64,000 bases of DNA from an uncultured Muribaculaceae bacterium. GTDB lineage: Bacteria > Pseudomonadota > Alphaproteobacteria > Rs-D84. Position 1 is the stretch's first letter, and each line of letters starts with the position of its first letter. Position numbers and translations under genes: made by a program. The DNA is taken from positions 163-64,162 of the forward strand of contig CAZUED010000003.1 in assembly GCA_964619545.1 (NCBI GenBank), in the 5' to 3' direction. The notes beneath the pieces were generated by a model. That model was given only the letters and a program-made list of their open reading frames with translations, was not told the DNA's origin and made no database searches. Positions 448-46,283 of the stretch are shown in pieces.

Positions 448-474
448 CAGATGAAAGTAGAGAAGGGGTTTTTT

Positions 475-2439: not shown

Positions 2440-2460
2440 AGCACAAGGCGTAGATAATAA

Positions 2461-4704
2461 ATGAATAAAAATTCCAGATTTTGCAAAAAGTTTGGTGCAT
2501 GTTTATCTATGCCTTATGCTGTTTTTTTGATGTTCTGCATGGGTATAGCTGATGCAGCTGAAGTAAGTCGTGCACTTCCCGGAAAACAAGTTGCTATTTC
2601 AACGACATTCCAAAATCAGATACAATCCGAAGATGAAGTACCGGTGATAGAGCCCGGACAAGTTTCTGTACCCATATCGGTTTCACGTACGGCAGCATTG
2701 CCTGCACAAAGAAGTCAAAATGAAATAAGATCACGCACAGCGGCGACAGCTGTTCCACGCGATGCACTGAATGAAGCTGCGCGCCAAGTTGGACGCAGCG
2801 CCAAGGCCGAGGCAGCAAGTATGAATGCAACGGCACCAGTTCGTCGTGCGGGGATTTCTTTACGTCCGACAGCTGCCGAGGTTGGCGGCCGTGCAGCAGT
2901 TGTTACAGCTGGTACAACTACAGCTTCAAGTGTCAGCGCGGCAAGTCGTAGATTAACTTCACGTGCTGCAACTACAGGTCCCGATACAGCTGGGATTGAC
3001 GATACAATAGCTGTGACGGAATCATGCCAAGCGCAATATACCGACTGCATGGATCAGTTCTGCGCTGTCATTGATGCCAACCAAAAAAGATGCAGCTGCA
3101 GTAATCGTCTTTCTTCTTATTCGCGTGTAGAAACATCTGTAAAAGAAGCAAACAATCAGCTGAATGACGTCGCACAACGCATACGCTATGTGGGATTGTC
3201 TGCGGATGAAATTAGTGCGATTATGAGCGCGACCGAGGCTGAGATTGCATTACAAAATACCCGTGATACAACAGAATCACGGAATATGCTGGATGAAATT
3301 GAAAATCTTATTCGTTCGCCGGAAAATGTTGTTGCGCAAAGTTCTTCATCAACGATTGATTTGGACTTGAGTTTTGATGCAGAGGCTGATCCCATGGAGT
3401 TGTTTAATCTTTCCGGATCATCAACAGGGTCATTTTCTAATTTGCGTGGAACGGATTTGCTAAATGCCGCAAAAAAACGTTGCCAATCTGTGCTGACATC
3501 ATGCAAAGCCAAAGGTGCAAACGTCAATCAAATTACAGGTCGGTATGAAATAGAGATAGATAAAGACTGCATAACATATGAAAAAGGTCTGGAAAAGATG
3601 AATCAGACCTTGCGCACAAATGTTCGCAGTGCAACACAAATGTTGCAAAAGGCAAGACTTGCTGTGCTTGAAAATCATAACTCTTACGACGCCAAGGGTT
3701 GTGTTGGTGCTTTGGAACAATGCATGCACGACGAAATGGTTTGCGGAAGCGACTATTCTAAATGCCTTGATCCGACTAAACGCTTTATAGACGAAAGCGG
3801 AAAAGTAGTTTTGGGTCAAAATATTTCCATGATAAGAAACATTATGGCGAATTTTGATAATTCTATAATAGACGAGTCGTTTATAGGTTCAGCATGGGCA
3901 ATGTCGGGAATGTCTGGTTGTGATCAGGCACCAAATAATAATGGCAAATGCATTGTGAAGTATTTGTTGGGAAAAATCGGAATGGGCGAAGATAGCAGCT
4001 CTGGTTTGTGTCGCCCGGTTTTAGACAAGTGTCAAAAACAAACGTATGATGGCCGCGGCAAATATAATCCGAAAAACGCAATAGTCGTGGGCTATATACA
4101 GCGCGCAATGACTAATATTCGTGCTGCCCAGGAAAATATAATTTCAGATTACGCATCGACATGTATGGCGGAAATTGCAACTTGCTATTCCAAGCAGGTT
4201 ACGCAAATCAATGCATGGTCATCAAATGCCAACGTTCAGAATGTGTATTCAGTTCTGAAAGGCGCATGTCGTAATGTTGCACTGACATGCAGCTATGCGG
4301 TTTTCTCGGCCGACCAAACTGTGAATGGTTGCCCAATAACCAGCAATGATATGGCTGGAACCGATGGTGATAGGCAAAGCAAATGTATAGAAAACATTTC
4401 GGATATATTCTATCAATCAATGTTGTGTCCAGATTATTCGACATGGGTCCCGGCACAGACAGGTGCTATCGCAGGCACTATGTATCCTTATTCGCCCGAT
4501 ACACCGATCAGAGTGCATGTTAACGAGCGCTGTGTATGCCAATCAGGATATGGCGTAAATGCGGGTAGTTGTGAACAATGCCCGACCGGATACGCATTCA
4601 ATGCAAATTGCACTTATGCCAGTGCATCCCAAGGTTGTCCGATTATAGGATGCGGTTGCCCAGCGGGTACGACTTGGAATACGACTGCATCTGCGTGCCA
4701 ATAA
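2461..4704 (+). CDS. Large secreted Cys-rich protein, paralog 2, with an EGF/furin-like Cys-rich C-terminus
   Basis: 747-aa ORF with an N-terminal hydrophobic signal and an Arg/Ser/Thr/Ala-rich region. It has the same CxxYxxCMDxxC...RCxC core as paralog 1. The C-terminal end reads CVCQSGYG...CEQCPTGY...CPIIGCGCPAG. Confidence 0.75.
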   Translation: MNKNSRFCKKFGACLSMPYAVFLMFCMGIADAAEVSRALPGKQVAISTTFQNQIQSEDEVPVIEPGQVSVPISVSRTAALPAQRSQNEIRSRTAATAVPRDALNEAARQVGRSAKAEAASMNATAPVRRAGISLRPTAAEVGGRAAVVTAGTTTASSVSAASRRLTSRAATTGPDTAGIDDTIAVTESCQAQYTDCMDQFCAVIDANQKRCSCSNRLSSYSRVETSVKEANNQLNDVAQRIRYVGLSADEISAIMSATEAEIALQNTRDTTESRNMLDEIENLIRSPENVVAQSSSSTIDLDLSFDAEADPMELFNLSGSSTGSFSNLRGTDLLNAAKKRCQSVLTSCKAKGANVNQITGRYEIEIDKDCITYEKGLEKMNQTLRTNVRSATQMLQKARLAVLENHNSYDAKGCVGALEQCMHDEMVCGSDYSKCLDPTKRFIDESGKVVLGQNISMIRNIMANFDNSIIDESFIGSAWAMSGMSGCDQAPNNNGKCIVKYLLGKIGMGEDSSSGLCRPVLDKCQKQTYDGRGKYNPKNAIVVGYIQRAMTNIRAAQENIISDYASTCMAEIATCYSKQVTQINAWSSNANVQNVYSVLKGACRNVALTCSYAVFSADQTVNGCPITSNDMAGTDGDRQSKCIENISDIFYQSMLCPDYSTWVPAQTGAIAGTMYPYSPDTPIRVHVNERCVCQSGYGVNAGSCEQCPTGYAFNANCTYASASQGCPIIGCGCPAGTTWNTTASACQ

Positions 4705-6826: not shown

Positions 6827-7546
6827 ATGAAAGTAAAACTGAAATGTTTTTATAAAACTTCATTTGCAAATTGCTCGTTGCTCTTTTCTCTTTGCGCATT
6901 TTTAAGTGGTTGTGTCACATATCAAACGCCGCCGCGCAATGATTGGCCGATTATTTTACGTGGCGCGACCTTCTCTGAAATGACCGATACTATGAAAATT
7001 GCAAAGCGACCCGTTTTTATTGGTGGTGGTGGAAAAATAATAAACAAAGATGCCGGGCCAGAAAATATAAGTCAATATGGTAAAGAGCCCACGCCAACAG
7101 ACATTAGTCCAGCAGTATTAAAGTATATGGCTTCGCTGGAATATGAGTTATATGATTCTTTATTAAAACCGGGAATCCAGGTTCAGCGCGTGGGCACCGA
7201 TGTTGTTTTATTGCTGACACGTGATTCGTTTATGTATTTGGACGCACCAGAAGTTTCGGATGATGGTGAAGATACATTGAAAATCGTTGCAAAAATACTG
7301 AAAAAATATGATGCTACGTTTATGGAAATTTCGGGTTATACCGATGCAACAATAGACAAGAATGCGGCATCTGCACTTTCGTTGGATATGGCGCAAAGGG
7401 TTGGAATTTTTATGGCAAACCATGATATAAACCCTGCACGTATGTTTATTGTTGGTCGGGGCGCTGCACGTCCTATTGCGGCCCAAGATGATACAGGTCG
7501 GCGCATGAATCGGCGCGTTGAAATCAGATTGTCGCCAGCAAGATAG
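6827..7546 (+). CDS. OmpA-family peptidoglycan-associated lipoprotein
   Basis: Lipobox LSGC plus a C-terminal OmpA_C domain (SGYTD...NRRVEI). Confidence 0.8.
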   Translation: MKVKLKCFYKTSFANCSLLFSLCAFLSGCVTYQTPPRNDWPIILRGATFSEMTDTMKIAKRPVFIGGGGKIINKDAGPENISQYGKEPTPTDISPAVLKYMASLEYELYDSLLKPGIQVQRVGTDVVLLLTRDSFMYLDAPEVSDDGEDTLKIVAKILKKYDATFMEISGYTDATIDKNAASALSLDMAQRVGIFMANHDINPARMFIVGRGAARPIAAQDDTGRRMNRRVEIRLSPAR

Positions 7547-8273: not shown

Positions 8274-8403
8274 AATAGTTCTGAATTAAATCGCCGCAAT
8301 CGCGGCGATTTTTTTAATATAAAAATGTTTTGTAAAAAACTTTGATTTTGTTGATTTTGCCTTTCTACTTTTGCCTTTTGTTTTTTTGTGTTATAATTCA
8401 CCT

Positions 8404-9147
8404 ATGAAAAAGTTTTTTGCTTCATTGTTTGTTATTAGTTTTTCATTGCTGTTCATGGCGCCTGTGCGTGCATCAGATGCCCCGGATTTCAAGATTTACG
8501 AAGACGTTTCCATAAATAATCAGCCAAAATCCATGCCAGAAATAGAGGAATTATTTCTTAATCCCCGTGCCCAGACAGAAAATCTTTGGGCTGCCGGAAA
8601 AAATTCAATGTTAGAAATTTCTTATACTGGTTGCCCATTTCATACAATTCGTGAATGCCTGATTTGGAAGCGTAAACCAGTAATAATGGAAACAATCCCA
8701 TTGCCAACGCGGCATATTAAAAAAACTGATGATTATCAAACCGCATTGGTAAAAAGGTACGAGGCTCTGATGCAGGCAGCCAGATCTTGTTGCACTGCCG
8801 GCATGGAGAACAAGTTGATAAATTCTGGCGCATCCGCTGGTTTGATTTATAAATTTATGGTTGATGATGCAAACTTTTACGGATTTGGGGATAGATGCTT
8901 GATGATAACAGATGAAGAACTGCAAGAAAACTATTCTGGGACTGCAACCGCAAGGGCGGTGATGGGTGTTCGTGATACATGCCTGTGTCAGCGGCGGGAT
9001 TATTTTGATGCACTACTGGCGCCATTTGACGATTTTCCAGACGAAGAGTATAATTATACTTATCAAGATGGATTGAAGCGCGAGGTAAATGTTTCAATCA
9101 GCAATGATGTACGTGCAGTCAAAGAAATTTTGACACGCTGCCTATAA
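8404..9147 (+). CDS. Secreted Cys-containing hypothetical protein inserted between skp and lpxD
   Basis: Track ORF 8371..9147; the signal peptide starts at M12 (MKKFFASLFVISFSLLFMAPVRA). Ten Cys residues. Confidence 0.55.
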   Translation: MKKFFASLFVISFSLLFMAPVRASDAPDFKIYEDVSINNQPKSMPEIEELFLNPRAQTENLWAAGKNSMLEISYTGCPFHTIRECLIWKRKPVIMETIPLPTRHIKKTDDYQTALVKRYEALMQAARSCCTAGMENKLINSGASAGLIYKFMVDDANFYGFGDRCLMITDEELQENYSGTATARAVMGVRDTCLCQRRDYFDALLAPFDDFPDEEYNYTYQDGLKREVNVSISNDVRAVKEILTRCL

Positions 9148-9215
9148 AAAAGTTAATAATCACTACATTTCCAATAAACTTGCACTGACAATTTCTGTGT
9201 GGTATTATTTCAATC

Positions 9216-10265
9216 ATGAAAAAACTAATACAATTTTTGTTCGGCCAATGTGCTGAAAAAACTACTGCCGGTGCGCTGGCTAAGAAATTTGGCATGGAGC
9301 TGCATGGTAATGCTTCGGTTCCAGTTCGTGGTGTTGCGCCTATTGCGGATGCAAAGCCCGGTGACTTGGCATTCTATTCAACCGAGAGAAATTCCGAAGC
9401 ATTCAAGATTTTACCGATTGAAACATTAAAAAATACCAAGGCATCGGTAATATTGGTACAAAAAGAAAATGTGAAATTTGCCCCAAAATGTGCAACTTTG
9501 CTGCTGACCGACAGCCCTCGCGCAAACATTATAAAAATCATAGGTGAAATTTATAAAGAAAAACCGCGACTGGGTGTTCATTGGGCTGCTAATATAGAGC
9601 ATGGGGTATTTTTCCGTAAACGCCGAAGTGTTTATGTTAGTCAGTTTGCAACTATTGAAAAGGGTGCGGTGATAGAACAGGGGGTGAAAATTTATCCGGG
9701 GGCTTTCATCGGTCGCGGTGTGGTGCTGGGGACTGGAACAATCGTTCATACTGGTGCACATATTGAAAATGCCACCATTGGTGCGAATTGTGTAATTCAC
9801 AGCGGTGCTGTTATTGGCAAGGAAGGATTTGGATATACGCGTCAAAATGGTAAGAATGTATTTATTCCGCACGTTGGTCGCGTGGTTATCGGGGATCGCG
9901 TTTCTGTTGGTGCAAATTCTTGCATAGATCGCGGAATGATGACAGATACAACCATTGGGGCTGGAACAAAGATTGATAACTTGATTCAGATTGCGCATGG
10001 CGTTGTTATAGGTCAAGAGTGTTTTTTAGCCGCAGGCGTTGGTCTGGCCGGTGGGGTTGTAATTGGCGACAGGGCAATGATTGGCGGTCATGTTGGAATT
10101 GCCAATGGTGTTAAAGTTGGTGATGATGCTGAAATAGGCGCGCAAAGTGGTGTTTTTCGCGATATTCCAGCGGGCGAGCGTCATATGGGCTATCCCGCAG
10201 TTCCGGGGATGGAATTTATGCGCGCTCATGCATGGGTCAAGAAAAACATGAGGGATAAGAAATGA
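9216..10265 (+). CDS. lpxD: UDP-3-O-acylglucosamine N-acyltransferase
   Basis: Left-handed beta-helix hexapeptide repeats and an LpxD N-terminal region. Overlaps fabZ by 4 nt. Confidence 0.95.
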   Translation: MKKLIQFLFGQCAEKTTAGALAKKFGMELHGNASVPVRGVAPIADAKPGDLAFYSTERNSEAFKILPIETLKNTKASVILVQKENVKFAPKCATLLLTDSPRANIIKIIGEIYKEKPRLGVHWAANIEHGVFFRKRRSVYVSQFATIEKGAVIEQGVKIYPGAFIGRGVVLGTGTIVHTGAHIENATIGANCVIHSGAVIGKEGFGYTRQNGKNVFIPHVGRVVIGDRVSVGANSCIDRGMMTDTTIGAGTKIDNLIQIAHGVVIGQECFLAAGVGLAGGVVIGDRAMIGGHVGIANGVKVGDDAEIGAQSGVFRDIPAGERHMGYPAVPGMEFMRAHAWVKKNMRDKK

Positions 10266-10690
10266 TGGTAGATACAAAGGGTGTAGAAGCTGTAATTCCA
10301 CATCGCGGCAATATGAGATTGGTGGATGAAATTCGCGAATTTAATGAAATCAGTGGTGTTGGTATAAAACATGTCAGGGATGATGAATTTTGGTGTGCCG
10401 GACATTTTCCCGGAAATCCGATAATGCCTGGTGTTTTACAGGTCGAGGCCTTGGCGCAAACTGCATGCTTTATTGTGTTCAAGCAAATGGGTGCAACAGG
10501 TAAGGACACTTTGGGCTATTTTACCACTATGGAAAAAATCAGATTTTCGCACATGGTAAAACCTGGCGATACGCTTGAATTGCATGTAGAAATTTTGGCA
10601 AAAAAATTAAACATGTATAAATTTCATGGAATTGCAATGGTTGGCGGGAAAAAAGTTTCCGAGGCTACATTTTCCGCAATCATGAATTAA
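10262..10690 (+). CDS. fabZ: 3-hydroxyacyl-ACP dehydratase
   Basis: Hotdog-fold motifs (HFPGNPIMPGVL). Confidence 0.95.
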   Translation: MMVDTKGVEAVIPHRGNMRLVDEIREFNEISGVGIKHVRDDEFWCAGHFPGNPIMPGVLQVEALAQTACFIVFKQMGATGKDTLGYFTTMEKIRFSHMVKPGDTLELHVEILAKKLNMYKFHGIAMVGGKKVSEATFSAIMN

Positions 10691-10794
10691 AATCGCTGTA
10701 CGTGCCTTTATCGGCAGTTAAATACTTGTATAAAGCATCGGGCGTCCATATAAATGGCGCCCGAATTTTTAATACGTGTTTTGCGAAAGAAACA

Positions 10795-10995
10795 CAGGTT
10801 ATGTTAGAGCATAAGTTATAGGGCATAACGCATAGATATTTTTTACCTTGTGCCTTATGCTCTAAAAACACCCATCCATTTTGTTCCAGGATTTTTAGGT
10901 CGCGGGTTTGCAGCAGTATAAAGTTTATTTTCCCTGAACCGACTTGTATCATAGTGTATCTATGTCTTATGCCTTTAGCCTTATGCTCTAAAACG
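10795..10995. repeat. Three copies of a ~35-40 bp repeat unit (consensus ...gccttatgctctaaaa...), one inverted and two direct
   Basis: Copies at 10799-10840 (reverse), 10845-10872 and 10960-10995. The track ORFs here contain the internal repeats IVLEHKAKG and VFLEHKAQG and are probably non-coding. Confidence 0.6.
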
Positions 10996-11096
10996 ATTGC
11001 GCAGTGTCGAAATTTTCGGCAAAAAATGCGTGGCATTATTTTCCTGGTATTATTTGTAAATCCGATAAGCATGAAAATCTCCGATTTTTATTTAAT

Positions 11097-11205
11097 TTTC
11101 AAAGTGCAATTGTGGTGTCGGCTTCACCGACAACCTATAAATAATTATTTTACCTGTGAGCAACGCGAACACATTAATTGCACATTGCACTTTGCTAATT
11201 GCTCA
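11097..11205. repeat. MITE-like element, copy A (~100 bp, with terminal inverted repeats AAGTGCAA...TTGCACTT)
   Basis: Its reverse complement aligns at ~80% identity to 18612-18720. Confidence 0.7.
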
Positions 11206-11616
11206 TTAGTTTTCCAGCCATCCTTTGATTTTTGCAGCTTGCGCGATAGTTTGCATTGCATCATTCCACAGGGCAGCTTTGGCATTTTCTGACCATTCAT
11301 GCTGATGTGGAGCGCGCCGCAAGTCTCCAAATTCTTTCAAGACTTCCAGTTGTTTGGGCGTTAGCTTGCCGGCCAGGTAAAGCCGAGTGATAAGAGTTTC
11401 AACATCAATAGCTTCACAAGGATATGGATTTCGTGCCACTGGTCTTCCGATACGCATACGCGCAATGCTGGCAGATGAAAGCGCATCCTTTTGTCGGCAA
11501 GTTAAAAACCAAAACCACATTTGATCGGCGTCTTGAAATTTTCTTTCTGGTGCGTCAAAAGCCGTAGAAGGTATATTTTTTTGTTTTAAGTTGGCGTTCA
11601 TTTTTTCTCTCTCCAT
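11206..11616 (-). CDS. Hypothetical small protein with a possible helix-turn-helix (LTPKQLEVL)
   Basis: ORF with two possible ATGs (11616 and 11601; the second follows GGAG). Lies inside the IR-bracketed block. Confidence 0.5.
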   Translation of the reverse strand: MEREKMNANLKQKNIPSTAFDAPERKFQDADQMWFWFLTCRQKDALSSASIARMRIGRPVARNPYPCEAIDVETLITRLYLAGKLTPKQLEVLKEFGDLRRAPHQHEWSENAKAALWNDAMQTIAQAAKIKGWLEN

Positions 11617-11741
11617 TTTACCCCGTATAATTACTGGGTATGCATTCCTACACTAAAAATAATTGAATTATATCAAATGATACAACTACAAATAGATACT
11701 GCGGTTAGGTTTCTGACATTTTTTGTTTTTTGATAAATTAA

Positions 11742-11775
11742 AAAAATTCGCCACTTGGGCGAATCGGAGAATTGT
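11742..11775 (-). terminator. Rho-independent terminator after the Cys-rich paralog 3 gene
   Basis: attcgcc-acttg-ggcgaat hairpin with a T-run on the minus strand. Confidence 0.5.
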
Positions 11776-11790
11776 AAATACTAAATAAAA

Positions 11791-13938
11791 TTATCTATCT
11801 TGACCGATTTTGGTAGATGTTCCGGATTTCAGGTTGTCATTGGCTATACGAAGTTGTACTTGGTATGCGTTTATACAATCTGTCATACTGGAATTAGTCA
11901 TAGAATCGCCACATTTTTCAAATTGAGATTCAGATAATTTCAATGTTGTTGACATTCCTTTCAGCAAGTCAGAATCAAATTTAAGCTGCTTTCTGGCATC
12001 TGTTTTATTTGATGCGGAACGTATTACGCTCAAGTTGTTATTCAAGCAAGAAATCATATCTGATGTGCTGTAAACCTCATTACAATCACGAGCACCATTT
12101 AATCTTACATTACCTTTAGAAGATTTGCTTGCACTAGTAGAAGAATCATCAGTAGTATCGCCGCCAGCGGCCTGTAATTTTGATACCAGAATGGATTTCT
12201 CCATCTGAGTCTTTAACCGCTTCATAGTAACGTCCAAAAAGTCATACTGACGTTTCATCTGTTGAGTAATAATTGTCGTTTTCAATGCGATTGTATCCGC
12301 CATCATTTGTTTGTCAGCGGCCGAGGTTGGATTTTTTGTACTTCCAATGTTATAAGCATGGGTGCTGCACAAAGCGATGGCTGAATTGATATAATCATTT
12401 CCGCTGTCTTCTTTGCACCCGTTATCAGCTGTGCCAATGGAAAGAATTGCGTCCAGATTGTTGTTTTTGACACACAGATTGCGATCTGGCAAACGTCTTA
12501 GCTGTGCCAAATTACTTATAACAGCTAACTGATCAGAATTTGTTGCACACCATTTTATTGCGTCGGCTGCAGATTCTTCGCCGCGAATTACACTTGGTGC
12601 GTCCTGGGCAATTATTCTGCGCAAAGTTTCTATATCAATCGTCGATTGCTTTTTGCGATTTTTAAATAACACGGAATTATCAATTGCGTCAGATGCACAT
12701 GCAACGCGAATCCCGCCAGAACTGCCCGCATCCATATCCAGCCAGTTTTGTTGAATGTCCTCTTGATTATTTAACATCTTTAACAAAGTGCAATGGGGCT
12801 GTTGAGATTTTACTCGGCGGTTCCCCTGAGCATCATTTTCGTATGCTATAGGCCAGTATCCGCGGCCGGTTTTTGTATCATAATCGCAAGTTATGCTTGT
12901 CTTATCATCAATTTTTTCAGTTTGATTTTGAGAACATGTCTCGCACATATATTGCCCCCAGACATTGCAAGAGCCATTCAGCATCATGTAAATATCTGTT
13001 ATATCAACGCCCAAAGATTGCGCTAAAACCAACGCATCATACAACTCGTCCAAAACTGCATCATACGGATCAAAGAATTTATTTGCCTTATCCTTGAACG
13101 CTTTGACTCGCCGAGGACCCTGGCAATTATTTCCATTAGAATCACAACGCGCATAATCAAAAACATTTTGCATTGTGTTTTTTAAATCTTTCATCGCAAC
13201 ATCAGAATTTTCAAGCTGGGTCAGTATTTGACCACCAATTTGTTCGCGTGCCAAAACATCTGCCGATACACCCGCATTGACTGCATTAGTAATTGTTTTA
13301 TCGGGTGCTGATGCGCTTGCTGCTTGGGCCGCGGCCTGTGCTTGCTGGGCCGCCAGTTGTTTTTGCTCTTCCAATGCTTGCTGAACAGCCGCGGCGGATT
13401 GAGCAGATTGTTCTTGCATCTGTTGCTGCATCTGCATCATCTGCGCTTGCATTTGTTCTATCTGAGTGTTTGATTGCGCCGCTGCTGCATTTGCAGCCTG
13501 CGTTGTTGCAGCATTTTGCGCCTCGGTTGCTTTTGCAATAGCGGCACTTACCATCTGTGCCGCCAATGTTTGGATTAAATCGTCACCATATTGCTCGCAC
13601 GAAGGATTACTTTTCACGCAACCTTTCACAATCGGAAGCGCCAATTCCATGGTTGTGCAGCCCGCGCACTTTGGCTGGGCGCAACGCAAAATAAGTGAAT
13701 TACAATTTCCAAAATCTGCAACCGGCCTTTGTTGCCCCAGTGGATTAGGGTTTATCGCGGCATTCCACTGATTGTTGTTCAATGCGCCGGCACTGCCGGT
13801 AAATACAGTTCTGTTACCTGAAATTCCGCCAGAATTTGCAAAAGAAGGCCCTGGTCCGCCGATAGGACTGTCGCCATAGGCAGTCCCCAGTGCAAAGCAG
13901 GCGGTACAAACAGATAAAAATCTGATTAAAATCTTCAT
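11791..13938 (-). CDS. Large secreted Cys-rich protein, paralog 3. It has a signal peptide, a Gln/Ala-rich coiled region and many Cys residues
   Basis: Track ORF 11791..13998; start moved to M21 (MKILIRFLSVCTACFALGTAYG). The motif C-x6-C-x4-C-x2-C resembles paralogs 1 and 2. Lies 67 nt downstream of virB10. Confidence 0.7.
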   Translation of the reverse strand: MKILIRFLSVCTACFALGTAYGDSPIGGPGPSFANSGGISGNRTVFTGSAGALNNNQWNAAINPNPLGQQRPVADFGNCNSLILRCAQPKCAGCTTMELALPIVKGCVKSNPSCEQYGDDLIQTLAAQMVSAAIAKATEAQNAATTQAANAAAAQSNTQIEQMQAQMMQMQQQMQEQSAQSAAAVQQALEEQKQLAAQQAQAAAQAASASAPDKTITNAVNAGVSADVLAREQIGGQILTQLENSDVAMKDLKNTMQNVFDYARCDSNGNNCQGPRRVKAFKDKANKFFDPYDAVLDELYDALVLAQSLGVDITDIYMMLNGSCNVWGQYMCETCSQNQTEKIDDKTSITCDYDTKTGRGYWPIAYENDAQGNRRVKSQQPHCTLLKMLNNQEDIQQNWLDMDAGSSGGIRVACASDAIDNSVLFKNRKKQSTIDIETLRRIIAQDAPSVIRGEESAADAIKWCATNSDQLAVISNLAQLRRLPDRNLCVKNNNLDAILSIGTADNGCKEDSGNDYINSAIALCSTHAYNIGSTKNPTSAADKQMMADTIALKTTIITQQMKRQYDFLDVTMKRLKTQMEKSILVSKLQAAGGDTTDDSSTSASKSSKGNVRLNGARDCNEVYSTSDMISCLNNNLSVIRSASNKTDARKQLKFDSDLLKGMSTTLKLSESQFEKCGDSMTNSSMTDCINAYQVQLRIANDNLKSGTSTKIGQDR

Positions 13939-14005
13939 ATTCTCTCTTGAAGCAAGTTTATCATAAAATGCGAGGAAATGCAAGCCTCCCTTTAACAAGT
14001 GGAAG

Positions 14006-16300
14006 CTAAATTATTGGGGGAAAGCAATCACCGCCAGCTGCTGGACAGCAGTTGAATCCTTGGCTACCCATGTCTGTATAAACCTCGCCCGTGCAACAGC
14101 CGTTTAAGTCTGGCGATGTACCATCTTCGCAGGTCAGTGCCGTCGTGGTGGTGGTTGCGGGTGGTGTTTCTTTGGCAAATGGATTTTTTATTGTACCGTC
14201 CGCATTGTATTGCAGGCCCAAAACTTGCTCGTTATATTCTTTTGTTCCCTTAGTTAATTGCTGGCCATTGGTTCCGACAATACCGGTTTGCTGCTGGTTA
14301 TTCCAAATAGCCTGCTGTTGGGCATTATTTATCGCTTGATACTGAATTGCTTTACAATATGCAACAACGGTACGATAGTCATAGCCAGCCTCGGAAATAG
14401 TTTGTGCTGTTACACCCGCACTCAGCTGTCCATTAGTGCCGCAGTATTTCTGTATATCAAATCCGCGAACTTGTCCAACCCATGATGCATCATCATAATT
14501 TGGTATGGCTTCGGACGCTTTATGAGAAACATATTGCGAAGGAGTCAAATTGCAATTTTCAAGCCCATTCACCTTGTCGCAGAAGTTCACAATTAAATCC
14601 TTTGGCGAATAAACCGTTATGCGCGTACCAGCGGCAATAGAAAATGGAGGAACCGTGTTGTCCAGCATATCAACCATTAATTTTTGCGCAACTCTGTTCC
14701 ATGTTGAAATAATTTCATTTTTTGCCAGCTCGGACGAGCGAACTTGACCACTTTGTGTAACCGTATTGTTATCCAGATCAATTTGATTTACGAACTTGTC
14801 TGAAATTGGCGCAATCAAATTAACAGCGGCAGGCACAACTGCCGTTATCATCGGCATTATGAATTGCTCCATATAATCTGTGCTGCCGTGACCTGGAACG
14901 CCAACGCGACCTTGGCTGTCGCCAGCAAAGGGCTCGTCCCCGGCAAAGCTGAATTCAACTCCGTCCGGTCTAACAAAGCGATACCATTTGATTTGCATAC
15001 GACCGATGGCTTTATACGGACCCGGCATTTCACCAGTCAAATAACCCAACATCAATGTTCCGGTCGGAATTATTATAGTGCGTCCGTTATCAGAATAGAC
15101 ATGTCTATCAACTGTTGCCTGAACTGGCAACATGGATTGACGCTCTATCTTTGCATCTGCACGTATTTCATTTACGATTGTCGCAGGAATAGGCTTGTAC
15201 TGGCGCAGAACAAAAGTGCGGTCATAGGGCTCGGTCGATATAAATGCATCGCCCGCAGATGAAGGTACCAGGTTACTTTCTGGTTTATATGCAAATGCTG
15301 GATTTATCTCTGACAAACGTTTTGCACCACCCGCAGCTCTGGGTAATTCTGCCGCTGCTGCATTTACTTGTCTTGCTCGATTTTGTACGCGTGCGTTCGC
15401 CGGATTGGACAATACAGGAACATTCGCGCTTGATGCAATAAATCCGATTCGATCAAAGTCAGAGCCTATTTTTCTGCTGGGATTTTTAAGATCGGTAATA
15501 AATCCGGTATCCAAATTATATTCACCCAGTGGGCTGGTGCAGTCCAAGTCAGAAAAAGGATGAAAAAGATAATGTCCACCTTGGGGACGTATCCATCCGA
15601 TTTGCTTTCCATATGCGTCATAGCCGCCGAATGCAAATTCATAGCAGCGCTCGGTATTTAATGCTGCTGTAGTTACTGGCGCAGGCAAATTTTCTGTTGC
15701 AAATTTTGGCGCAAGGGTTTCGACCGCCTCGGCCACAGGATTAATTTCAGGGGCAGTCAAAACAGGTTCTGGTTCTGGCAATTGCACTGGTTTTTGTGGT
15801 TCTACTTTTTTTGTAGATAAAGCAACAGGAATTTCAGCAGTTTGTGCCATTTTGGCCTCGGCACTGGCGGGGTAATACTCAATAAGTACTTTAATGCCGG
15901 TTGGTTCCAAGTCTGCAGCAGGCGTCCAAGTTAATTCTGCACTGCAAGGAATGCCAAGTGTAATTTCGCCCATATTTGTACAGGTGGTATCTATGCTTAA
16001 TCCATCAATTTTTTGGGATAGTTTTACGCTGGGAATCATTGCGACTGCATTCGAAGAAATTTTAATAGTCTGTGTCTGTTTTTCGCCAACTGGAATGTTT
16101 TGCCATGCGATCTCAGATGGATCCATGGTCAGCTCCAGAACTGGTTTTGATTCGGACTTTGGTTTATCCTTGGAATCGCGACCCATCAGAATAACCAGCA
16201 AAACAACGACTACCAAAAAAGCAGCGAACATCACGATCCACAGCACATGCCGTGGCATGGACTTTTTTACATCGCTGATAGTGGTTGTTATCATCGCCAA
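14006..16300 (-). CDS. virB10: Type IV secretion protein VirB10/TrbI-like with a long C-terminal extension
   Basis: N-terminal TM segment, a Pro-rich region and a TrbI-type domain (...VDRHVYSDNGRTIIIPTGTLMLG...). This is followed by a Q/N-rich stretch, a TTTTT linker and a tail with 6 Cys. Confidence 0.88.
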   Translation of the reverse strand: MAMITTTISDVKKSMPRHVLWIVMFAAFLVVVVLLVILMGRDSKDKPKSESKPVLELTMDPSEIAWQNIPVGEKQTQTIKISSNAVAMIPSVKLSQKIDGLSIDTTCTNMGEITLGIPCSAELTWTPAADLEPTGIKVLIEYYPASAEAKMAQTAEIPVALSTKKVEPQKPVQLPEPEPVLTAPEINPVAEAVETLAPKFATENLPAPVTTAALNTERCYEFAFGGYDAYGKQIGWIRPQGGHYLFHPFSDLDCTSPLGEYNLDTGFITDLKNPSRKIGSDFDRIGFIASSANVPVLSNPANARVQNRARQVNAAAAELPRAAGGAKRLSEINPAFAYKPESNLVPSSAGDAFISTEPYDRTFVLRQYKPIPATIVNEIRADAKIERQSMLPVQATVDRHVYSDNGRTIIIPTGTLMLGYLTGEMPGPYKAIGRMQIKWYRFVRPDGVEFSFAGDEPFAGDSQGRVGVPGHGSTDYMEQFIMPMITAVVPAAVNLIAPISDKFVNQIDLDNNTVTQSGQVRSSELAKNEIISTWNRVAQKLMVDMLDNTVPPFSIAAGTRITVYSPKDLIVNFCDKVNGLENCNLTPSQYVSHKASEAIPNYDDASWVGQVRGFDIQKYCGTNGQLSAGVTAQTISEAGYDYRTVVAYCKAIQYQAINNAQQQAIWNNQQQTGIVGTNGQQLTKGTKEYNEQVLGLQYNADGTIKNPFAKETPPATTTTTALTCEDGTSPDLNGCCTGEVYTDMGSQGFNCCPAAGGDCFPPII

Positions 16301-16321
16301 CGCAGACTCCTGAGCCTTTTA

Positions 16322-17797
16322 TTATTGAACTCTTACTACATTGCAAGCGGTCCCTTGGAACTTTGTCATTTTATCACAAAGCTTTTGTGCGCTTTCAATG
16401 TCCGACATGGGCCCAATACGCAGGCGATAAAGCCGCGCGGTTGCAGCGCCCGTACCCAGATCTCCAACTCCAGACTCGTCAACTGCGAAATAAACCATAT
16501 TACGATAAGGATTCAGCAGTCCTTGTCCATCATCACCACTGAATTTCGCCAGCAGCTTTGTCCAATAATCATTCAGTGCTTTGACAGAAGTATCGGATTT
16601 CAGCTCAACAGCGACACCTGCTTGATTAGAGGTTATAATTGGAATGTCGCTTTGCGGCAGGAACGAGCCCGCAGTATTGCGAACACTTGGCAGCATATTA
16701 ACGCCAGTCGCACCAGTTGATGCGCCATTTGTCGGCATTACCATCGGCGGTTGAAATCCATTAACCTGTTGGTCAGTGATTGGCTGCAACATTGCACCAG
16801 AATCAACCGGCATATTTCCATAACCAACATTTTGCAAGGATTGTGATGATTGCATGCTTTGCATAACGTTAGATTCAGCCAGTGCCATGACGCTGGAAGT
16901 GTCAGCAATCAAGAAGGGTTTTGCGCGACGCTTGATACAAACAATTCGCTGACCACTGCGCAATACCATATCCCCAACTGCTTCTACAATCAACAGGCGT
17001 CCGTTTTCACCATCAGTACGAAAACCGACTGGCGATTCACCACCTTCGACCAAGATAGAAACAACTGGTCTTTGAGTCATTGCGATAACCTTGTCGCCAA
17101 AATCAATATAGGTAAAGATTCTGTCGCGCCATACGCGTTCAGGCGCAATTACAAAGTCATCAGGATTCGGGACAAAAATGTCTAAATCAAAGCGGAACTC
17201 TGACGGATCAATTTTCATTGTTTTTATCCAGCCGTAATCTTCGCCGTCAACGCCCAAGGTAGAAGTTGAATTTTTCTTTGGGAAAATAGAGTTCATACCA
17301 GAAGTTTGACCAGCAGAAGAGCTGGTTGCATTTGGTATGCTAGAACGCCCATCCAGAACAACATCAACCTGGGAATAAGAAATTTCGCTGGAATTAGCAG
17401 GTTCGGAACGCAGATAGAATAAATATTTATTTCCTGATTTGCCAGTAATAATCAAATTTGTGTCGCTGCCCTGATTTGTTGCAACCGGTGTCATATAAAT
17501 TGTTCTGCCACCTTTTTGCGGATCCATTTGGAACAAACCTTCGTTACCAATGACGCCATCTTCGATAATTTCGCCTTCGGGCAAATTTATCATGGTTACC
17601 ATTCCATTACGCAAACGAATCGGAAGAACTGCGCCTGGCGCCCATGTCAGTTGGGCAAAGCCAGGTTTAGAACTGCCTGTGGCCATATTTGCCTCTGGGT
17701 TATCCCACGCATCCTGGACACCATAATCTTCGGCACTTGCCCCGCCAATACAAAAGGCAAAAATCAAAGGGCAAAGAGCAAATAATTTTATATTCAT
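16322..17797 (-). CDS. virB9: Type IV secretion protein VirB9-like with a C-terminal SPOR-like extension
   Basis: Signal peptide, and N- and C-terminal domains similar to VirB9/TrbG. About 190 extra residues end in a putative SPOR fold. Confidence 0.82.
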   Translation of the reverse strand: MNIKLFALCPLIFAFCIGGASAEDYGVQDAWDNPEANMATGSSKPGFAQLTWAPGAVLPIRLRNGMVTMINLPEGEIIEDGVIGNEGLFQMDPQKGGRTIYMTPVATNQGSDTNLIITGKSGNKYLFYLRSEPANSSEISYSQVDVVLDGRSSIPNATSSSAGQTSGMNSIFPKKNSTSTLGVDGEDYGWIKTMKIDPSEFRFDLDIFVPNPDDFVIAPERVWRDRIFTYIDFGDKVIAMTQRPVVSILVEGGESPVGFRTDGENGRLLIVEAVGDMVLRSGQRIVCIKRRAKPFLIADTSSVMALAESNVMQSMQSSQSLQNVGYGNMPVDSGAMLQPITDQQVNGFQPPMVMPTNGASTGATGVNMLPSVRNTAGSFLPQSDIPIITSNQAGVAVELKSDTSVKALNDYWTKLLAKFSGDDGQGLLNPYRNMVYFAVDESGVGDLGTGAATARLYRLRIGPMSDIESAQKLCDKMTKFQGTACNVVRVQ

Positions 17798-17876
17798 TTC
17801 ACATCCTTCCTAATTTTTTTCTCAAGCGAATTCAGCTGTGACATTTGCCACTTGCCGTTTGCTATTTAAGTTTATG

Positions 17877-18530
17877 CTATTGCATAAAATCGAGCGGATC
17901 ACTTCCCCCTGATTCCACCCGGTATTCCGAGACTTGCAGCCCCAGCGGATTTTCCTGTCTGTTGCCCCATTTCAATTCTGGCGTGTAGGTCAATCCTATT
18001 ACAATAGTAAAATCTTTTGGCGGGGTATGTCCAGCGCTTTCTGATGTGCAAAACCATCTGAATTTTACAGCGAATTTATCACTTCCGCGTGGCTCAATTG
18101 CGGGCGATTGAAACTCTACAGGGCACGAAAACTGAACGTTCGGAGAATCCTGCATGAAAGCAGACCATAACTGAGTTGTTGCAAATCTGGCATAAACCTC
18201 TCTAGATGACCAGATATAAACTGGGCCGTCTGGGCTGCGCCACTTGTACCGCATGGTATTTACATTGGGTGTTATTTCGTTGCGCGCGCGAATATATTCC
18301 TTGATGAAGCTTTCCTTGTAATCGATCATAGTTTTGTTATTTACTGGCAGTTGTTGAATTTCGATTATTTGACCCTCGACACGGCGCGCATTCAGCAAGA
18401 AAACCTGGGTCCTATTCAATGGGAACATGTTAGAGACTGCGAAAATCATGGCCAAAGCAGTTGCAATTGCTGCGGCCAGCACGAAAGACATCATGCGCGC
18501 GGTAAAAGCATTGGGTGTGACAACTGCCAT
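17877..18530 (-). CDS. virB8: Type IV secretion protein VirB8-like
   Basis: N-terminal TM segment, a periplasmic domain and the NPLG motif (NPLGLQVSEYRV). Confidence 0.78.
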   Translation of the reverse strand: MAVVTPNAFTARMMSFVLAAAIATALAMIFAVSNMFPLNRTQVFLLNARRVEGQIIEIQQLPVNNKTMIDYKESFIKEYIRARNEITPNVNTMRYKWRSPDGPVYIWSSREVYARFATTQLWSAFMQDSPNVQFSCPVEFQSPAIEPRGSDKFAVKFRWFCTSESAGHTPPKDFTIVIGLTYTPELKWGNRQENPLGLQVSEYRVESGGSDPLDFMQ

Positions 18531-18611
18531 TTTCTTCAGAATTCTCCCTTCTTTGCGCGATTGTAGTAAATTTCCAGATTACTATGCAAGGGAAAAGTTC
18601 AATTTTCAATT

Positions 18612-18720
18612 ATCAAAGTGCAATTAACGTGTTCGCTGCGCTCACAATTAAATAATTATAAAAGCATCGGTGAATGCCGACACCACAATTGCTAATTGAA
18701 TTTTGTACATTGCACATTAA
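18612..18720. repeat. MITE-like element, copy B (inverted relative to copy A)
   Basis: caaagtgcaatt...gccgacaccacaattgc aligns to the reverse complement of 11097-11205. Confidence 0.7.
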
Positions 18721-18729
18721 ACTTTTCCC

Positions 18730-18758
18730 TTGCCTTAAAAAAACTAATAGGGTAGAAT
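18730..18758 (+). promoter_or_regulatory. Sigma70-like promoter for the tRNA-Trp-secE-nusG unit
   Basis: TTGCCT, 17-nt spacer, TAGAAT. Confidence 0.45.
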
Positions 18759-18873
18759 ACTTTTCGCTTGATTTTGGTAATAAATGTGTTATTGTGCGCG
18801 AACGAAAATAAGATAAACTGGGGTGGAGTTCGCACGATTCCTGCGGTGCAGGCGCGTGGCAGACAAGAGTTTT

Positions 18874-18947
18874 AGGGGCATAGTTCAACGGTAGAATAGA
18901 GGTCTCCAAAACCTTTGGTGTGGGTTCGATTCCTACTGCCCCTGCCA
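18874..18947 (+). tRNA. tRNA-Trp (CCA)
   Basis: Cloverleaf folded by hand. The anticodon loop is CTCCAAA, the T-loop is TTCGATT, and CCA is encoded. Confidence 0.9.
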
Positions 18948-19018
18948 AAAAGCTTTTGTGATGGGTATAAAAATGTCCACCAAAAGCCAAGCGACCAGTT
19001 AAAAAGTTTGGAACACGT

Positions 19019-19198
19019 ATGAAGAAATTTCTTGATTACATCAAAGCAGTTCGCCAGGAATGGTTTAAAATTGTGTGGCCATCACGCGATGCGGTTATTC
19101 GCGCGACCATAATGATTTTGGTGTTTTCAGGACTTGCAGCGCTGTTCTTTTTTATCACCGATAGTGCATTGAATGCGCTGGTGGAGTGGATTTTTTAG
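19019..19198 (+). CDS. secE: Preprotein translocase subunit SecE (59 aa; below the track's size cutoff)
   Basis: Translation MKKFLDYIKAVRQEWFKIVWPSRDAVIRATIMILVFSGLAALFFFITDSALNALVEWIF. The position between tRNA-Trp and nusG is the conserved one. Confidence 0.8.
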   Translation: MKKFLDYIKAVRQEWFKIVWPSRDAVIRATIMILVFSGLAALFFFITDSALNALVEWIF

Positions 19199-19241
19199 AA
19201 AATGTGCAATCTGCACATAAAACGAATTGAGTGGAGCAATT

Positions 19242-19763
19242 ATGAATTGGTATGTCGTGAATGTTCATACAGGATGCGAGGATAAAGTAGCGCGTGAATT
19301 GCGTGAGCAAATCAATACGCGAAAATTAAATCCTTTATTCGGCGAGATACTGGTACCAACTCGCGAAGTATCCGAGGTAAAGGGCGGCAAACGCGTAAAA
19401 ACGGAAAGAAAATTTTTCCCTGGATATATCGTTGTTCAAATGCAAATGACTAACGAGACTTTTTCGTTGGTAAAGTTGCACCCTCAGGTTGTTATGTTCT
19501 TGGGACAAAAGCAAAAACCTGTAGCGATAACAGAGGATGAAGCCCGCCGTCTGATGAAACAGATGGAAGAGGGTTCGGCAAGTTTGGACGAGTCTGAATA
19601 CGAAGTCGGTCAAGAAATTCACATTATTGATGGTCCATTCATGAACTTTAACGGAATTGCCGCCGAGGTTGATAATTTGAAACAGAAAATGGTTGTGAAC
19701 GTTTTAGTGTTCGGCCGTGAAACCAGCGTCAGCTTAGACTTTAACCAGGTGGAAAAAGTTTAG
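19242..19763 (+). CDS. nusG: Transcription antiterminator NusG
   Basis: NGN and KOW domains. The ATG at 19242 follows GGAG; the track start at 19227 is a TTG. Confidence 0.95.
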   Translation: MNWYVVNVHTGCEDKVARELREQINTRKLNPLFGEILVPTREVSEVKGGKRVKTERKFFPGYIVVQMQMTNETFSLVKLHPQVVMFLGQKQKPVAITEDEARRLMKQMEEGSASLDESEYEVGQEIHIIDGPFMNFNGIAAEVDNLKQKMVVNVLVFGRETSVSLDFNQVEKV

Positions 19764-19896
19764 TTAAATCGAGTGGTTTAATTATAGGGATTTTTATGGT
19801 TTAGGAATGTTCTGAAAACCATATCCTGGAAACGGGAAATAAACGCGGAAGCAGTAGCCACTGCGCACCGCAAACTCTAAAACAACGGAGAAAAAA

Positions 19897-20328
19897 ATGG
19901 CAAAGAAAGAGTTCAAGGGGCTGGTAAAGCTTGTTGCCCCTGCAAAACAGGCGAACCCATCGCCTCCGATTGGCCCAATTTTGGGCGCTAACGGCGTTAA
20001 CATCGCCGAATTCTGCAAACAATTTAATGATGCAACCAAGGACATGGAAGCAGGTATGCCTGTTCCAGTCATTATTACTGTTTATACTGACCGCAGTTTC
20101 GAATTTATTATGAAATTGCCACCAGTGTCGTACTTTATTAAAAAGGCGTTGAAATTGAAATCTGGTTCTAAAAAGCCAGGTCGTGATTTTGTCGGAACTT
20201 TATCAATGGCCGAAGTTCGCAAAATTGCCGAAGGTAAAATGCCAGACTTGAATTGCTCTACCATTGATGCGGCCGCAAAAATCGTTGCCGGACAATGCCG
20301 TTCTATGGGCGTAAAGGTGGAGGAATAA
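19897..20328 (+). CDS. rplK: 50S ribosomal protein L11
   Basis: L11 motifs (PPIGPILG). Confidence 0.95.
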   Translation: MAKKEFKGLVKLVAPAKQANPSPPIGPILGANGVNIAEFCKQFNDATKDMEAGMPVPVIITVYTDRSFEFIMKLPPVSYFIKKALKLKSGSKKPGRDFVGTLSMAEVRKIAEGKMPDLNCSTIDAAAKIVAGQCRSMGVKVEE

Positions 20329-22044: not shown

Positions 22045-22090
22045 AGCAAAGTGCAAAGTGCAAGTACGCGCTTTGCCTTTGCTTTTGCGG
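22045..22090 (+). terminator. rplL-rpoB intergenic hairpin (attenuator-like)
   Basis: Imperfect palindrome agcaaagtgcaaagtgcaag / cgctttgcctttgcttttgc. Confidence 0.4.
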
Positions 22091-22208
22091 ATAATTCTGA
22101 GATTGCTTTGCAATTTTTGAGTTATTCAATTGCATCTTGCACCCTGCAAAATGCAAATTTTGCAAAAATCGACAGGCGATTTTTGATATGCGACTAAGGA
22201 GCGAACAT

Positions 22209-30551: not shown

Positions 30552-30572
30552 AACCCCAAGGGTAAATAAAAA

Positions 30573-30600
30573 GGGCGCGAAATGCGCCTTTTTATTTTTT
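30573..30600 (+). terminator. Rho-independent terminator after rpoC
   Basis: gggcgcgaaatgcgcc followed by a T-run. Confidence 0.7.
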
Positions 30601-30785
30601 TAATTATTATTTAATTAGTATGTAAAAATTATACATCCGAATCAAACCGCGCCTGTGCGCGGTTTTTGTATAGGCCTTTGTATGTAAAAAAATTGAACAA
30701 AAAATAAAAAAATTACAAAAAAAGGTCGTGCCGATTCGAAAAATAGGCAGATTTCTGGTAAAAATAAAGTTTCTTAAAAATCCTC

Positions 30786-31920: not shown

Positions 31921-32053
31921 AATACTCAGTCCTTATTTATTTTGGTCAAGATTATAGTCGTATATTATATTTCGTCAAGAGTTTTATAAATTGTTGCAAT
32001 ATGTAAATGTTAAAAAAATCGCCGCGTTTGCGGCGATTTTTTTCTTTTACAAT

Positions 32054-37601: not shown

Positions 37602-38162
37602 TTATACACTCATTATATCTTGTTCTTTTTGTTTGGCCAGTTTATCTACTTCGGCCGCGCGCGCATCAAAAACTTTTTGTAAATCTTCTTCGTATCTGTG
37701 CTGATCGTCTTCGGAAATGTCTTTATCGTCTTTGGCGCGTTTTATTTTACCCATAGCATCCTGGCGGATGTTTCGCATAGAAATTTTTGCATCCTCGGCA
37801 TATTTTCCAGCAACTTTCACCAGTTCTTTGCGGCGTTCTTCTGTCAAAGGCGGCAGATTCAGGCGAATTACTCCGCCGGCGGTCATTGGGTTCAGTCCCA
37901 GGCCAGATTCACGAATTGCCTTTTCAACAGCAGCAGCGTTTGATAAATCCCACACGGAAATGGATAAAACCTGGGATTCGGGTGCGGAAACGGTTGCCAG
38001 CTGATCAACAGGCATTTCAGTTCCATATACGGGTACGCGAATACCATCCAGTAAATGTACGGACGCACGGCCTGTGCGCAGTCCTGCGAATTCTGTTTTT
38101 AATACTTCTATAGTTTGCAGCGTTTTTACCTCTGCTTCGGATTTTAAATTATCGTAATCCAT
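37602..38162 (-). CDS. frr: Ribosome recycling factor
   Basis: RRF family sequence. Confidence 0.95.
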   Translation of the reverse strand: MDYDNLKSEAEVKTLQTIEVLKTEFAGLRTGRASVHLLDGIRVPVYGTEMPVDQLATVSAPESQVLSISVWDLSNAAAVEKAIRESGLGLNPMTAGGVIRLNLPPLTEERRKELVKVAGKYAEDAKISMRNIRQDAMGKIKRAKDDKDISEDDQHRYEEDLQKVFDARAAEVDKLAKQKEQDIMSV

Positions 38163-38240
38163 TAAAGCTCCTTTTGGACTATAATCTTAGCAAAATCGTT
38201 TGACTTTTGGCAAGTGTAAATATAGAATGCGCAGATGTTC

Positions 38241-38316
38241 GGGGTTGTAGCTCAGTTGGTAGAGCACTTGCATGGCATGCAAGGGGTCGTCGGTTCGAGT
38301 CCGATCAGCTCCACCA
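38241..38316 (+). tRNA. tRNA-Ala (GGC)
   Basis: Folded by hand. G3:U70 identity pair, anticodon loop ATGGCAT, CCA encoded. Confidence 0.9.
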
Positions 38317-38355
38317 TGTTTTTTGAAAGACAAAAAATAATAAAAAGGTTCAGCT

Positions 38356-39048: not shown

Positions 39049-39114
39049 GATTGGACTTTTATATATTTTCCTTGAAAATCTAAATTTTGGATGCTAGGCT
39101 TGCAAAGCTTCGAC

Positions 39115-39191: not shown

Positions 39192-39311
39192 TTATTAAAA
39201 AAAACCGCCGCAATTCGCGGCGGTTTTTATTTTTTACTAGATTTATCATATTTCAAGGGTTAATATGCTCGACCCAATAATTATAAGAAATAAAAAATAA
39301 AAGAGATAGAA

Positions 39312-46275: not shown

Positions 46276-46283
46276 AAAATTAA

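Follow-up and report, generated by a model that had tools for sequence, protein, structure and literature searches.

In a 64,000-nucleotide stretch of chromosome from an uncultured alphaproteobacterium with a Rickettsiales-like split VirB system (GenBank assembly GCA_964619545.1, contig CAZUED010000003.1, positions 163 to 64,162; hereafter the window), the type IV secretion system (T4SS) genes virB8, virB9 and virB10 and two adjoining genes are bracketed by two similar intergenic repeats, copy A and copy B. The reading we favour, with moderate confidence, is that A and B belong to a small family of modular, palindromic repeats of ~105-125 bp that are intergenic and do not code for protein, that the two copies are old and have diverged, and that the bracket they form is incidental. 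The family is newly described here; its kind, mosaic palindromic repeats like miniature transposable elements with inverted repeats (MITEs), repetitive extragenic palindromes (REPs) and bacterial interspersed mosaic elements (BIMEs), is already known. Our observations concern the repeat and its anatomy, its presence or absence at orthologous sites in related genomes and its occurrence at an unrelated locus.

A preliminary description of this DNA had reported a pair of ~100-bp repeats inverted relative to each other, and this was borne out by blastn within the window, which aligned 83 nt of A with the reverse strand of B at 80.7% identity (11106-11187 against 18692-18614, E 5.6e-12); a gapped local alignment reached 105 columns at 76% identity (11098-11201 against 18700-18600). 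On the basis of blastn, nhmmer and a three-way alignment of A and B with a third copy on metagenomic contig L012, the whole palindromic repeat of copy A occupies 11091-11213 (+). Copy B, including its outer symmetric arms GCAAGGGAAAAG...CTTTTCCCTTGC, occupies 18586-18733 (-), with the part homologous to A at ~18600-18700. The coordinates first proposed were correct for A (11097-11205) while those for its partner (18612-18720) are shifted by ~10-20 nt from the true one. The longest exact match between the copies is 17 nt and the exact blocks common to both are CAATTGTGGTGTCGGC and TGTGAGC-N3-GCGAACAC, to neither of which is there any other close match in the window. An nhmmer profile found no copies beyond A and B in the 64 kb, the next matches having E-values of at least 0.1. 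That two AT-rich intergenic regions should resemble each other by chance or low complexity can practically be dismissed: both are indeed AT-rich and internally repetitive, but the blastn E-value, the exact blocks of 16-18 nt (against 0.7-1.2 window matches expected at three mismatches) and the recurrence of the same core in an independent metagenome refute it. Copy A lies between the stop codon of a gene for a 136-aa protein (11206-11208) and the start of a gene for a 130-aa protein (11072), and fills the gap from that stop codon to the ribosome-binding site of the 130-aa gene. At ~105-148 bp the element is non-coding, the only open reading frames (ORFs) overlapping it being long mechanical ones that run through other genes, so that the small MITE-like repeat with inverted termini and without an ORF that had been proposed is genuine.

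Alignment of A, B and the L012 copy gives a modular plan in which inverted arms of contiguous 7-bp repeats (heptads) surround a core of 60-65 bp. The arms comprise three to six contiguous heptads, roughly NNWTTGC. The core is made up of a short GC hairpin, a tract rich in AT and the box TGTGAGC-N3-GCGAACAC, which is identical in the three copies apart from N3. In copy A (+) the left arm (11091-11111) has ~3 heptads, TTTAATT TTCAAAG TGCAATT, inverted with respect to the right arm and holding the left terminal inverted repeat (TIR); the GC hairpin GTGTCGG-CTTCA-CCGACAAC (11115-11134) and the box TGTGAGC-N3-GCGAACAC(A) (11155-11173) follow. The right arm of A, identified by lag-7 autocorrelation (0.60), heptad pattern matches and a sliding scan, has five contiguous heptads, AATTGCA CATTGCA CTTTGCT AATTGCT CATTAGT (11176-11210), and overlaps the stop codon of the 136-aa gene. 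Copy B (-) has a left arm of five contiguous heptads, TTTAATG TGCAATG TACAAAA TTCAATT AGCAATT (18687-18721), a core hairpin GGTGTCGGCATTCACCGATGC followed by TTTTATAATTA that is terminator-like by a consensus scan (18664-18684), the box TGTGAGC-GCA-GCGAACAC(G) (18628-18646) and a right arm AATTGCA CTTTGAT AATTGAA AATTGAA CTTTTCC CTTGC (18586-18625) whose heptads continue in phase into the -35 box of virB8. The lag-7 autocorrelation of the pooled arms is 0.61, compared with about 0.2-0.35 at other lags, and was reached by none of 5000 shuffles; the window holds 10 instances of WTTGN3WTTGN3WTTG (0.77 expected), six of them in A and B. Terminal inverted repeats had been ascribed to each copy, and A does carry a perfect 11-mer, CAAAGTGCAAT (11099-11109) / ATTGCACTTTG (11184-11194), while in B the pair is imperfect (AATGTGCAATG ... 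ATTGCACTTTG). The termini pair in predicted folds, with folding z-scores of -2.5 for A and of -6.3 for B, the latter including the promoter-symmetric outer arms.

Several familiar motifs were considered for the element and rejected. The TIR nonamer AAGTGCAAT is not enriched in the window (31 matches against 36 expected) and was discarded as a widespread binding motif, and a TIR look-alike at 22045-22064 proved to be the rplL-rpoB hairpin. The vir box of Agrobacterium, the VirG site, has the 12-bp consensus TNCAATTGAAAY; neither A nor B matches it at up to two mismatches, and the window total of 92 compares with 111 expected. Judged by eye against consensus sequences, the core fits none of the alphaproteobacterial LexA box (GTTC-N7-GTTC), CRP, CtrA, IHF or DnaA sites. 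Within A no consensus match to an outward promoter was found except one overlapping the start of the 130-aa gene. Seven-nucleotide periodicity is also seen elsewhere in the window. The first codons of virB9 (17747-17785, -) form the tract TTTGCTC TTTGCCC TTTGATT TTTGCCT TTTG, kept in relatives (L002 10782-10813, L010 990-1014), and a similar tract stands at the 5' end of an OmpA-like gene (6861-6900); these may be signal-peptide codons only, although the heptads are of the same type as those of the repeat arms. The rplL-rpoB intergenic region (22100-22170) has TTGCA/TGCAA motifs ~7 nt apart (TTGCATC TTGCACC CTGCAAA ATGCAAA) and matches the arm part of the profile weakly (nhmmer E 0.2-0.6); contig L018 ends there. 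A CATCCTT-type heptad repeat lies at 47004-47046, inside a 286-aa ORF (46945-47805) of a second VirB8-like cluster.

A metagenome scan with the box pattern recovered the third copy, with the same modules, directly upstream of ruvB on L012 (1700-1803; nhmmer E 3e-30), where it is 73% identical to A and 70% to B. The RuvB of L012 groups with the same broad uncultured clade of Alphaproteobacteria, and because this contig has a GC content of 51% against 42% in the window it probably derives from another species. A copy upstream of ruvB therefore indicates a dispersed repeat family and not a virB-specific one. Both L012 and L013, a second assembly of the same locus that may share data with it, end inside the element, as a multi-copy repeat that breaks assemblies could cause. 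Elsewhere the searches returned little: Rfam over 10600-19300, at the gathering threshold and at E <= 1, gave only the tRNA, and neither plasmid blastn nor a scan of viral contigs gave a match to the element. The genome-collection scan covered GTDB representative genomes, a set without the source genome, with exact patterns that are insensitive to copies ~80% identical. A scan with AATTGTGGTGTCGGC[N0-1]TTCACC gave one match, in a Heliomicrobium metagenome-assembled genome (L008), which we regard as chance as only 21-34 nt fit the profile (nhmmer E 0.015-0.055).

For the orthologous site of copy B we compared relatives' contigs, six found via VirB8 homologues and two further loci via L11. The VirB8 proteins of the relatives are 72-96% identical to that of the window, and in all relatives tRNA-Trp is divergent from virB8-virB9-virB10. 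Alignment shows a framework conserved in all, ...AAGGCAAG-[spacer]-TTTTYNCTTGC-N-TACAAT-N-GAAGGGAG-ATG, and this conservation suggests two back-to-back promoters. The putative virB8 promoter (18560-18589, -) has the -35 box TTGCAT (18589-18584), an 18-nt spacer and the -10 box TACAAT (18565-18560), with CTTGC...TACAAT kept in all relatives; the putative divergent promoter of tRNA-Trp/secE/nusG is TTGCCT-17-TAGAAT (18730-18758, +). The -35 boxes of these promoters stand back to back, and the spacer that separates them is taken up by copy B. That B lies directly upstream of virB8, as had been described, is correct, and the further suggestion that it contributes promoter or operator sequence is plausible given that it abuts the conserved virB8 -35 box. 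The putative virB8 promoter, which separates copy B from virB8, falls inside the A-B segment.

The spacer between the -35 boxes is hypervariable, measuring about 38-85 nt in the relatives. Element B is found only in the window strain and in the same-strain contigs L001 and L017 (the latter 99.86% identical to the window), and is absent from the orthologous site, with the flanking promoters conserved, in L009, L019, L010, L004, L006 and L002. In L009, whose VirB8 is 96% identical to that of the window, and in L019 the flanks have 91-94% DNA identity and the spacer is unrelated, though also 7-bp periodic (lag-7 autocorrelation 0.51 in L009). Because only the window strain has B while the flanking promoters are conserved in the relatives, B is a lineage-specific gain in a slot between older promoters; and the virB8-10 block predates copy B, since six relatives without it share the tRNA-Trp/virB8 junction, the orientation and the divergent promoters. 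Close by, a 69-aa ORF between nusG and rplK is present in sister species ~91% identical in DNA (L019 1327-1536; L018 357-566) and is missing from the window (19763-19897) and from L017, which is another sign of rapid turnover of intergenic slots in the clade.

Site A was compared via homologues of the 136-aa protein in L015 and L016 (about 80% identical) and in L002 (62%). Both flanks are conserved: on one side the 136-aa gene ends, and on the other stand the ribosome-binding site and start of the 130-aa gene. Between them L016 has both arms (GTGCAATGTGCAA ... CATTGCACTTTGCTAATTAAATAAAAATCGG) with the core replaced by 14 nt, L015 has GAGCAAT-type heptad arms and the AT-rich/hairpin module without the box (nhmmer E 0.004), and in L002 the place is taken by a palindrome of unrelated sequence whose 19-bp stem is perfect (z = -5.5). 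The modules (arm, hairpin, box) thus occur in differing combinations across the window, L015, L016 and L012, and site A has long held a palindrome while modules came and went. As read from these alignments, both the A and B slots are palindromic and hypervariable throughout the alphaproteobacterial clade. The third copy and the absence of B in sister genomes fit a MITE-like or otherwise mobile or recombining repeat.

On the reading of a dispersed repeat family, the family may spread or be exchanged between intergenic slots as DNA, possibly by trans-mobilisation like a MITE or through palindromes that prompt template switching or gene conversion, as has been proposed for mosaics of the REP/BIME type, and its modules would be gained and lost piecemeal. 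Copy B, about -40 to -160 of both divergent promoters and with its heptads in phase with the -35 box, could affect the architecture of the promoters or attract a DNA-binding protein, and copy A could form an intercistronic hairpin in mRNA. A number of points weigh against this reading. We infer mobility from presence and absence among three copies, and the copy count is two in 64 kb plus one in a related organism, the exact-pattern scans being insensitive to copies ~80% identical. No cognate transposase or RAYT gene is found among the window ORFs. The flanks of A (TTAATTTT/TTAGTTTT) agree at 7 of 8 positions, a weak target-site-duplication signal in AT-rich DNA, and those of B are palindromic and not direct, with the ancestral spacer replaced, including bases proximal to the -35 box, so that there is no clean insertion. 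Finally, the window copies both have T4SS genes as neighbours, as would also be expected of an element dedicated to regulation.

The bracket itself had first been taken as a layout by which the virB module could invert or might have been mobilised, with the 7.4-kb block flipping between A and B or the copies being footprints of acquisition as a composite element. We consider this very unlikely, despite the relative inversion of the copies, their bracketing of exactly five genes, the neighbouring tRNA gene and the rearrangement of the wider neighbourhood in the clade, where lpxD-fabZ is inverted in L006 relative to the window. The six relatives without B keep the block next to tRNA-Trp in the same location, gene order (virB8-9-10) and orientation, and L002 and L004 match the window also in having the accessory genes and fabZ after the block. 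Three same-strain assemblies (window, L001 and L017) have a single orientation across the B junction, and there is no evidence of an alternative orientation or of acquisition in these or in any of the relatives' assemblies. Family searches found no invertase, integrase, recombinase or transposase domain in the main window ORFs, the five enclosed genes and their neighbours included. Diverged repeats whose longest exact match is 17 nt are a poor substrate for RecA, and A and B are 76-81% identical; inversion would moreover have no switching logic, because the virB8 promoter would travel with the segment. Nor does the block look like a tRNA-linked island, as there is no integrase, the flanking repeats are inverted and not direct, the block adjoins tRNA-Trp in all relatives and its GC content (0.38-0.47) is like that of its surroundings. 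As a rough calculation, with ~55 intergenic gaps in the window the chance that two copies placed at random lie no more than five genes apart would be about one in five, which would make the bracket statistically unremarkable; it looks incidental, the copies having neither delivered the block nor served to invert it. The rearrangement in L006 (14615-17844; VirB8 72% identical), set against window 8371-10690 and 37602-39191, can be described separately: virB10 is followed directly by a 252-aa gene, lpxD and fabZ in the same orientation and then by tRNA-His, tRNA-Ala and frr, the 735-aa, 136-aa and 130-aa genes being missing there and the 136-aa homologue lying at another place on the contig. Inversion and translocation have therefore reshaped this neighbourhood within the clade, with breakpoints that are not at A or B.

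A weightier alternative, which we hold to be possible but less probable, is that the heptad arrays and the box are operators for a cooperatively binding small protein that co-regulates the virB8 operon, the divergent tRNA-Trp/nusG promoter and the 130-aa gene, the likeness of A and B then reflecting a shared regulator and not mobility. The parS site of plasmid pSM19035 needs at least four contiguous heptads in mixed orientation for ParB function (PMC9499535), and the arms here have at least four contiguous 7-bp repeats, direct and inverted; the B array runs in phase into the conserved virB8 -35 box between two divergent promoters, and even the unrelated spacer at the B site of L009 is 7-bp periodic. 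Against such a dedicated cassette, the relatives keep the promoters and the 136-aa gene yet lack B, the third copy stands upstream of ruvB, and an operator specific to the T4SS is made less likely by the second VirB8-like cluster (45583-47805), which has no copy upstream. The window shows no enrichment of the TIR nonamer, no ribbon-helix-helix or helix-turn-helix (HTH) protein is found among the adjacent small proteins, the 136-aa protein having no DNA-binding match, and the heptads differ in sequence from those of pSM19035, whose consensus is 5'-WATCACW-3'. It is quite unlikely that the repeat acts at the level of RNA, as a small RNA, terminator or processing site. Its arms can pair (folding z -2.5 to -6.3), A lies within a probable co-transcript of two genes and the B core hairpin followed by TTTTAT scores as terminator-like; however, B, flanked by two divergent -35 boxes, is probably untranscribed, Rfam gives no match even at E <= 1, A and B are oriented differently with respect to their neighbouring genes, and the usual terminators of this genome differ, being GC-rich hairpins followed by T-runs. 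A more elaborate proposal, which we regard as improbable, would make the repeat a portable promoter-architecture cassette in which inverted heptad arrays (resembling the clade's -35 hexamer TTGCAN) and the box are bound cooperatively by a small protein; it would move between palindromic slots by hairpin-mediated template switching and not by a transposase, and would have rewired the shared virB8 / tRNA-Trp-secE-nusG-ribosomal-protein-rpoBC control region in this lineage.

Bacterial MITEs, such as the Correia elements of Neisseria and the repetitive intergenic consensus of enterobacteria (ERIC), have been reviewed; MITEs already known may bring with them promoters, IHF sites or RNase sites, in positions of just this kind, that change the expression of neighbouring genes (PMC10969869). 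Like Correia and ERIC the repeat is non-coding, about 100-200 bp in length, with inverted termini, intergenic and often just upstream of genes, and it is present or absent at orthologous sites of close relatives; of the characters by which MITEs are recognised it has TIRs, a size under about 600 bp without coding sequence and presence/absence polymorphism. Unlike MITEs it has no clear target-site duplication and no partner transposase among the window ORFs, its arms are arrays of 7-bp repeats and not one long TIR, and copy B replaces the ancestral spacer. With REP/BIME of E. coli, RIME of rhizobia and BOX of pneumococcus it shares palindromic units joined to other motifs in differing combinations at orthologous sites and, as in REP/BIME-type mosaics, an extragenic location that includes gaps between genes of one operon. 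This is a likeness of architecture, and unlike the REP/BIME type no RAYT-type transposase is present in the 64-kb window. The REP/BIME, RIME and BOX families number tens to hundreds of copies per genome.

In its host, an alphaproteobacterial clade with a Rickettsiales-like split VirB, and in being a palindromic repeat of about 100-150 bp, the family recalls the Rickettsia palindromic elements (RPE). Compared by description, it differs in that RPE frequently insert in frame into protein-coding genes whereas all three copies here are intergenic, A only touching a stop codon. Hin/Gin/Fim-type switches also have inverted repeats flanking a segment next to surface or secretion genes, and their crossover sites are near-identical; here by contrast the window lacks a recombinase gene, the identity of the repeats is 76-81%, the segment would carry the promoter along with it and one orientation is seen. 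The arms are also comparable to parS of pSM19035, in which contiguous heptads in mixed orientation form the binding architecture of a ribbon-helix-helix ParB (PMC9499535). The analogy lies in the at least four contiguous 7-bp repeats, direct and inverted, and in the position of the B arrays directly upstream of putative promoters. It breaks down in that the heptads are NNWTTGC-like, the site is chromosomal, no ribbon-helix-helix partner was found and a long non-repetitive core separates the arrays.

The five genes within the bracket, all on the minus strand, are those that had been listed, although two of the labels attached to them found no support. The 136-aa gene (11206-11616) belongs to a conserved clade-specific family with four predicted helices and had been called HTH-like. 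The protein has no match in Pfam or NCBIfam, a PDB profile search gave E 0.8 and with its four-helix AlphaFold model (pLDDT 78.8) Foldseek found nothing below E 0.8, so that an HTH regulator is not supported. The 735-aa protein (11791-13998; 3.3% Cys) is conserved downstream of virB10 in L002, L004, L015 and L016; its N terminus looks, by eye, like a signal peptide, and it has no family match. It had been labelled Cys-rich paralog 3. Two Cys-rich proteins, of 662 aa (3.3% Cys) and 747 aa (4.7% Cys), are encoded directly after the 5S rRNA gene (451-4704), and BLASTP detects no similarity of the 735-aa protein to them; these two are themselves weakly alike (26% over 219 aa) and neither has a family match. 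Domain searches identified virB10 (14006-16300, TrbI domain) and virB9 (16322-17797, CagX domain with a C-terminal SPOR-like stretch), and virB8 (17877-18530) matches Pfam PF04335 at E 6.6e-14. On the far side of B, tRNA-Trp (CCA; 18874-18947, +) opens the conserved tRNA-Trp-secE-nusG-rplKAJL-rpoBC cluster. To the left of A the order is an OmpH-like gene, a 258-aa gene, lpxD, fabZ (10262-10690, +) and the 130-aa gene (10680-11072, -), which is directly downstream of copy A and conserved in L002, L015 and L016. Within the last of these, direct and inverted DNA repeats (10797-10993; 44 nt at 75% identity) encode the duplicated peptide VLEHKAKG / FLEHKAQG.

Further along the window a second, weak VirB8-like gene (Pfam E 5e-4) follows directly after bamA and is succeeded by 216-aa and 286-aa ORFs without a family match (45583-47805), which may be a duplicated cluster of T4SS components as in Rickettsiales. 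A phage-derived cluster (48820-59575, -), interspersed with housekeeping genes (dnaB, a double-HTH regulator), includes T7-type terminase pieces (48820-49656 and 53075-53731), a tail tubular protein (56315-56842), a major capsid protein (57189-58004) and a T7 capsid-assembly protein (58877-59575), and may be a prophage remnant or a unit like a gene transfer agent. In the middle of it, 15-nt tandem repeats (58259-58750) lie within a 162-aa ORF (58312-58800, -) matching the histone H1-like HC2 family. At gene ends there are GC-stem hairpins flanked by A-runs and T-runs (e.g. AAAAAACCGCCGC...GCGGCGGTTTTT; 8283-8341, 30566-30605, 32012-32051, 39199-39238, 39603-39642, 53047-53086 and 61394-61433), which are the ordinary bidirectional intrinsic terminators of this genome, unlike A and B.

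If the reading of A and B as members of a dispersed family is right, they would add a further family to those known of small intergenic palindromes, from an uncultured and poorly known lineage of Alphaproteobacteria. The case also carries a caution, in that inverted repeats around a block of virulence-type genes need not imply mobility or inversion of the block, and comparison with relatives was what settled the matter here. Arms built of heptad arrays are uncommon in repeats of this sort and suggest that a protein partner should be sought, and a lineage-specific insertion between the divergent virB8 and nusG/ribosomal-protein/rpoBC promoters could change the expression of both.

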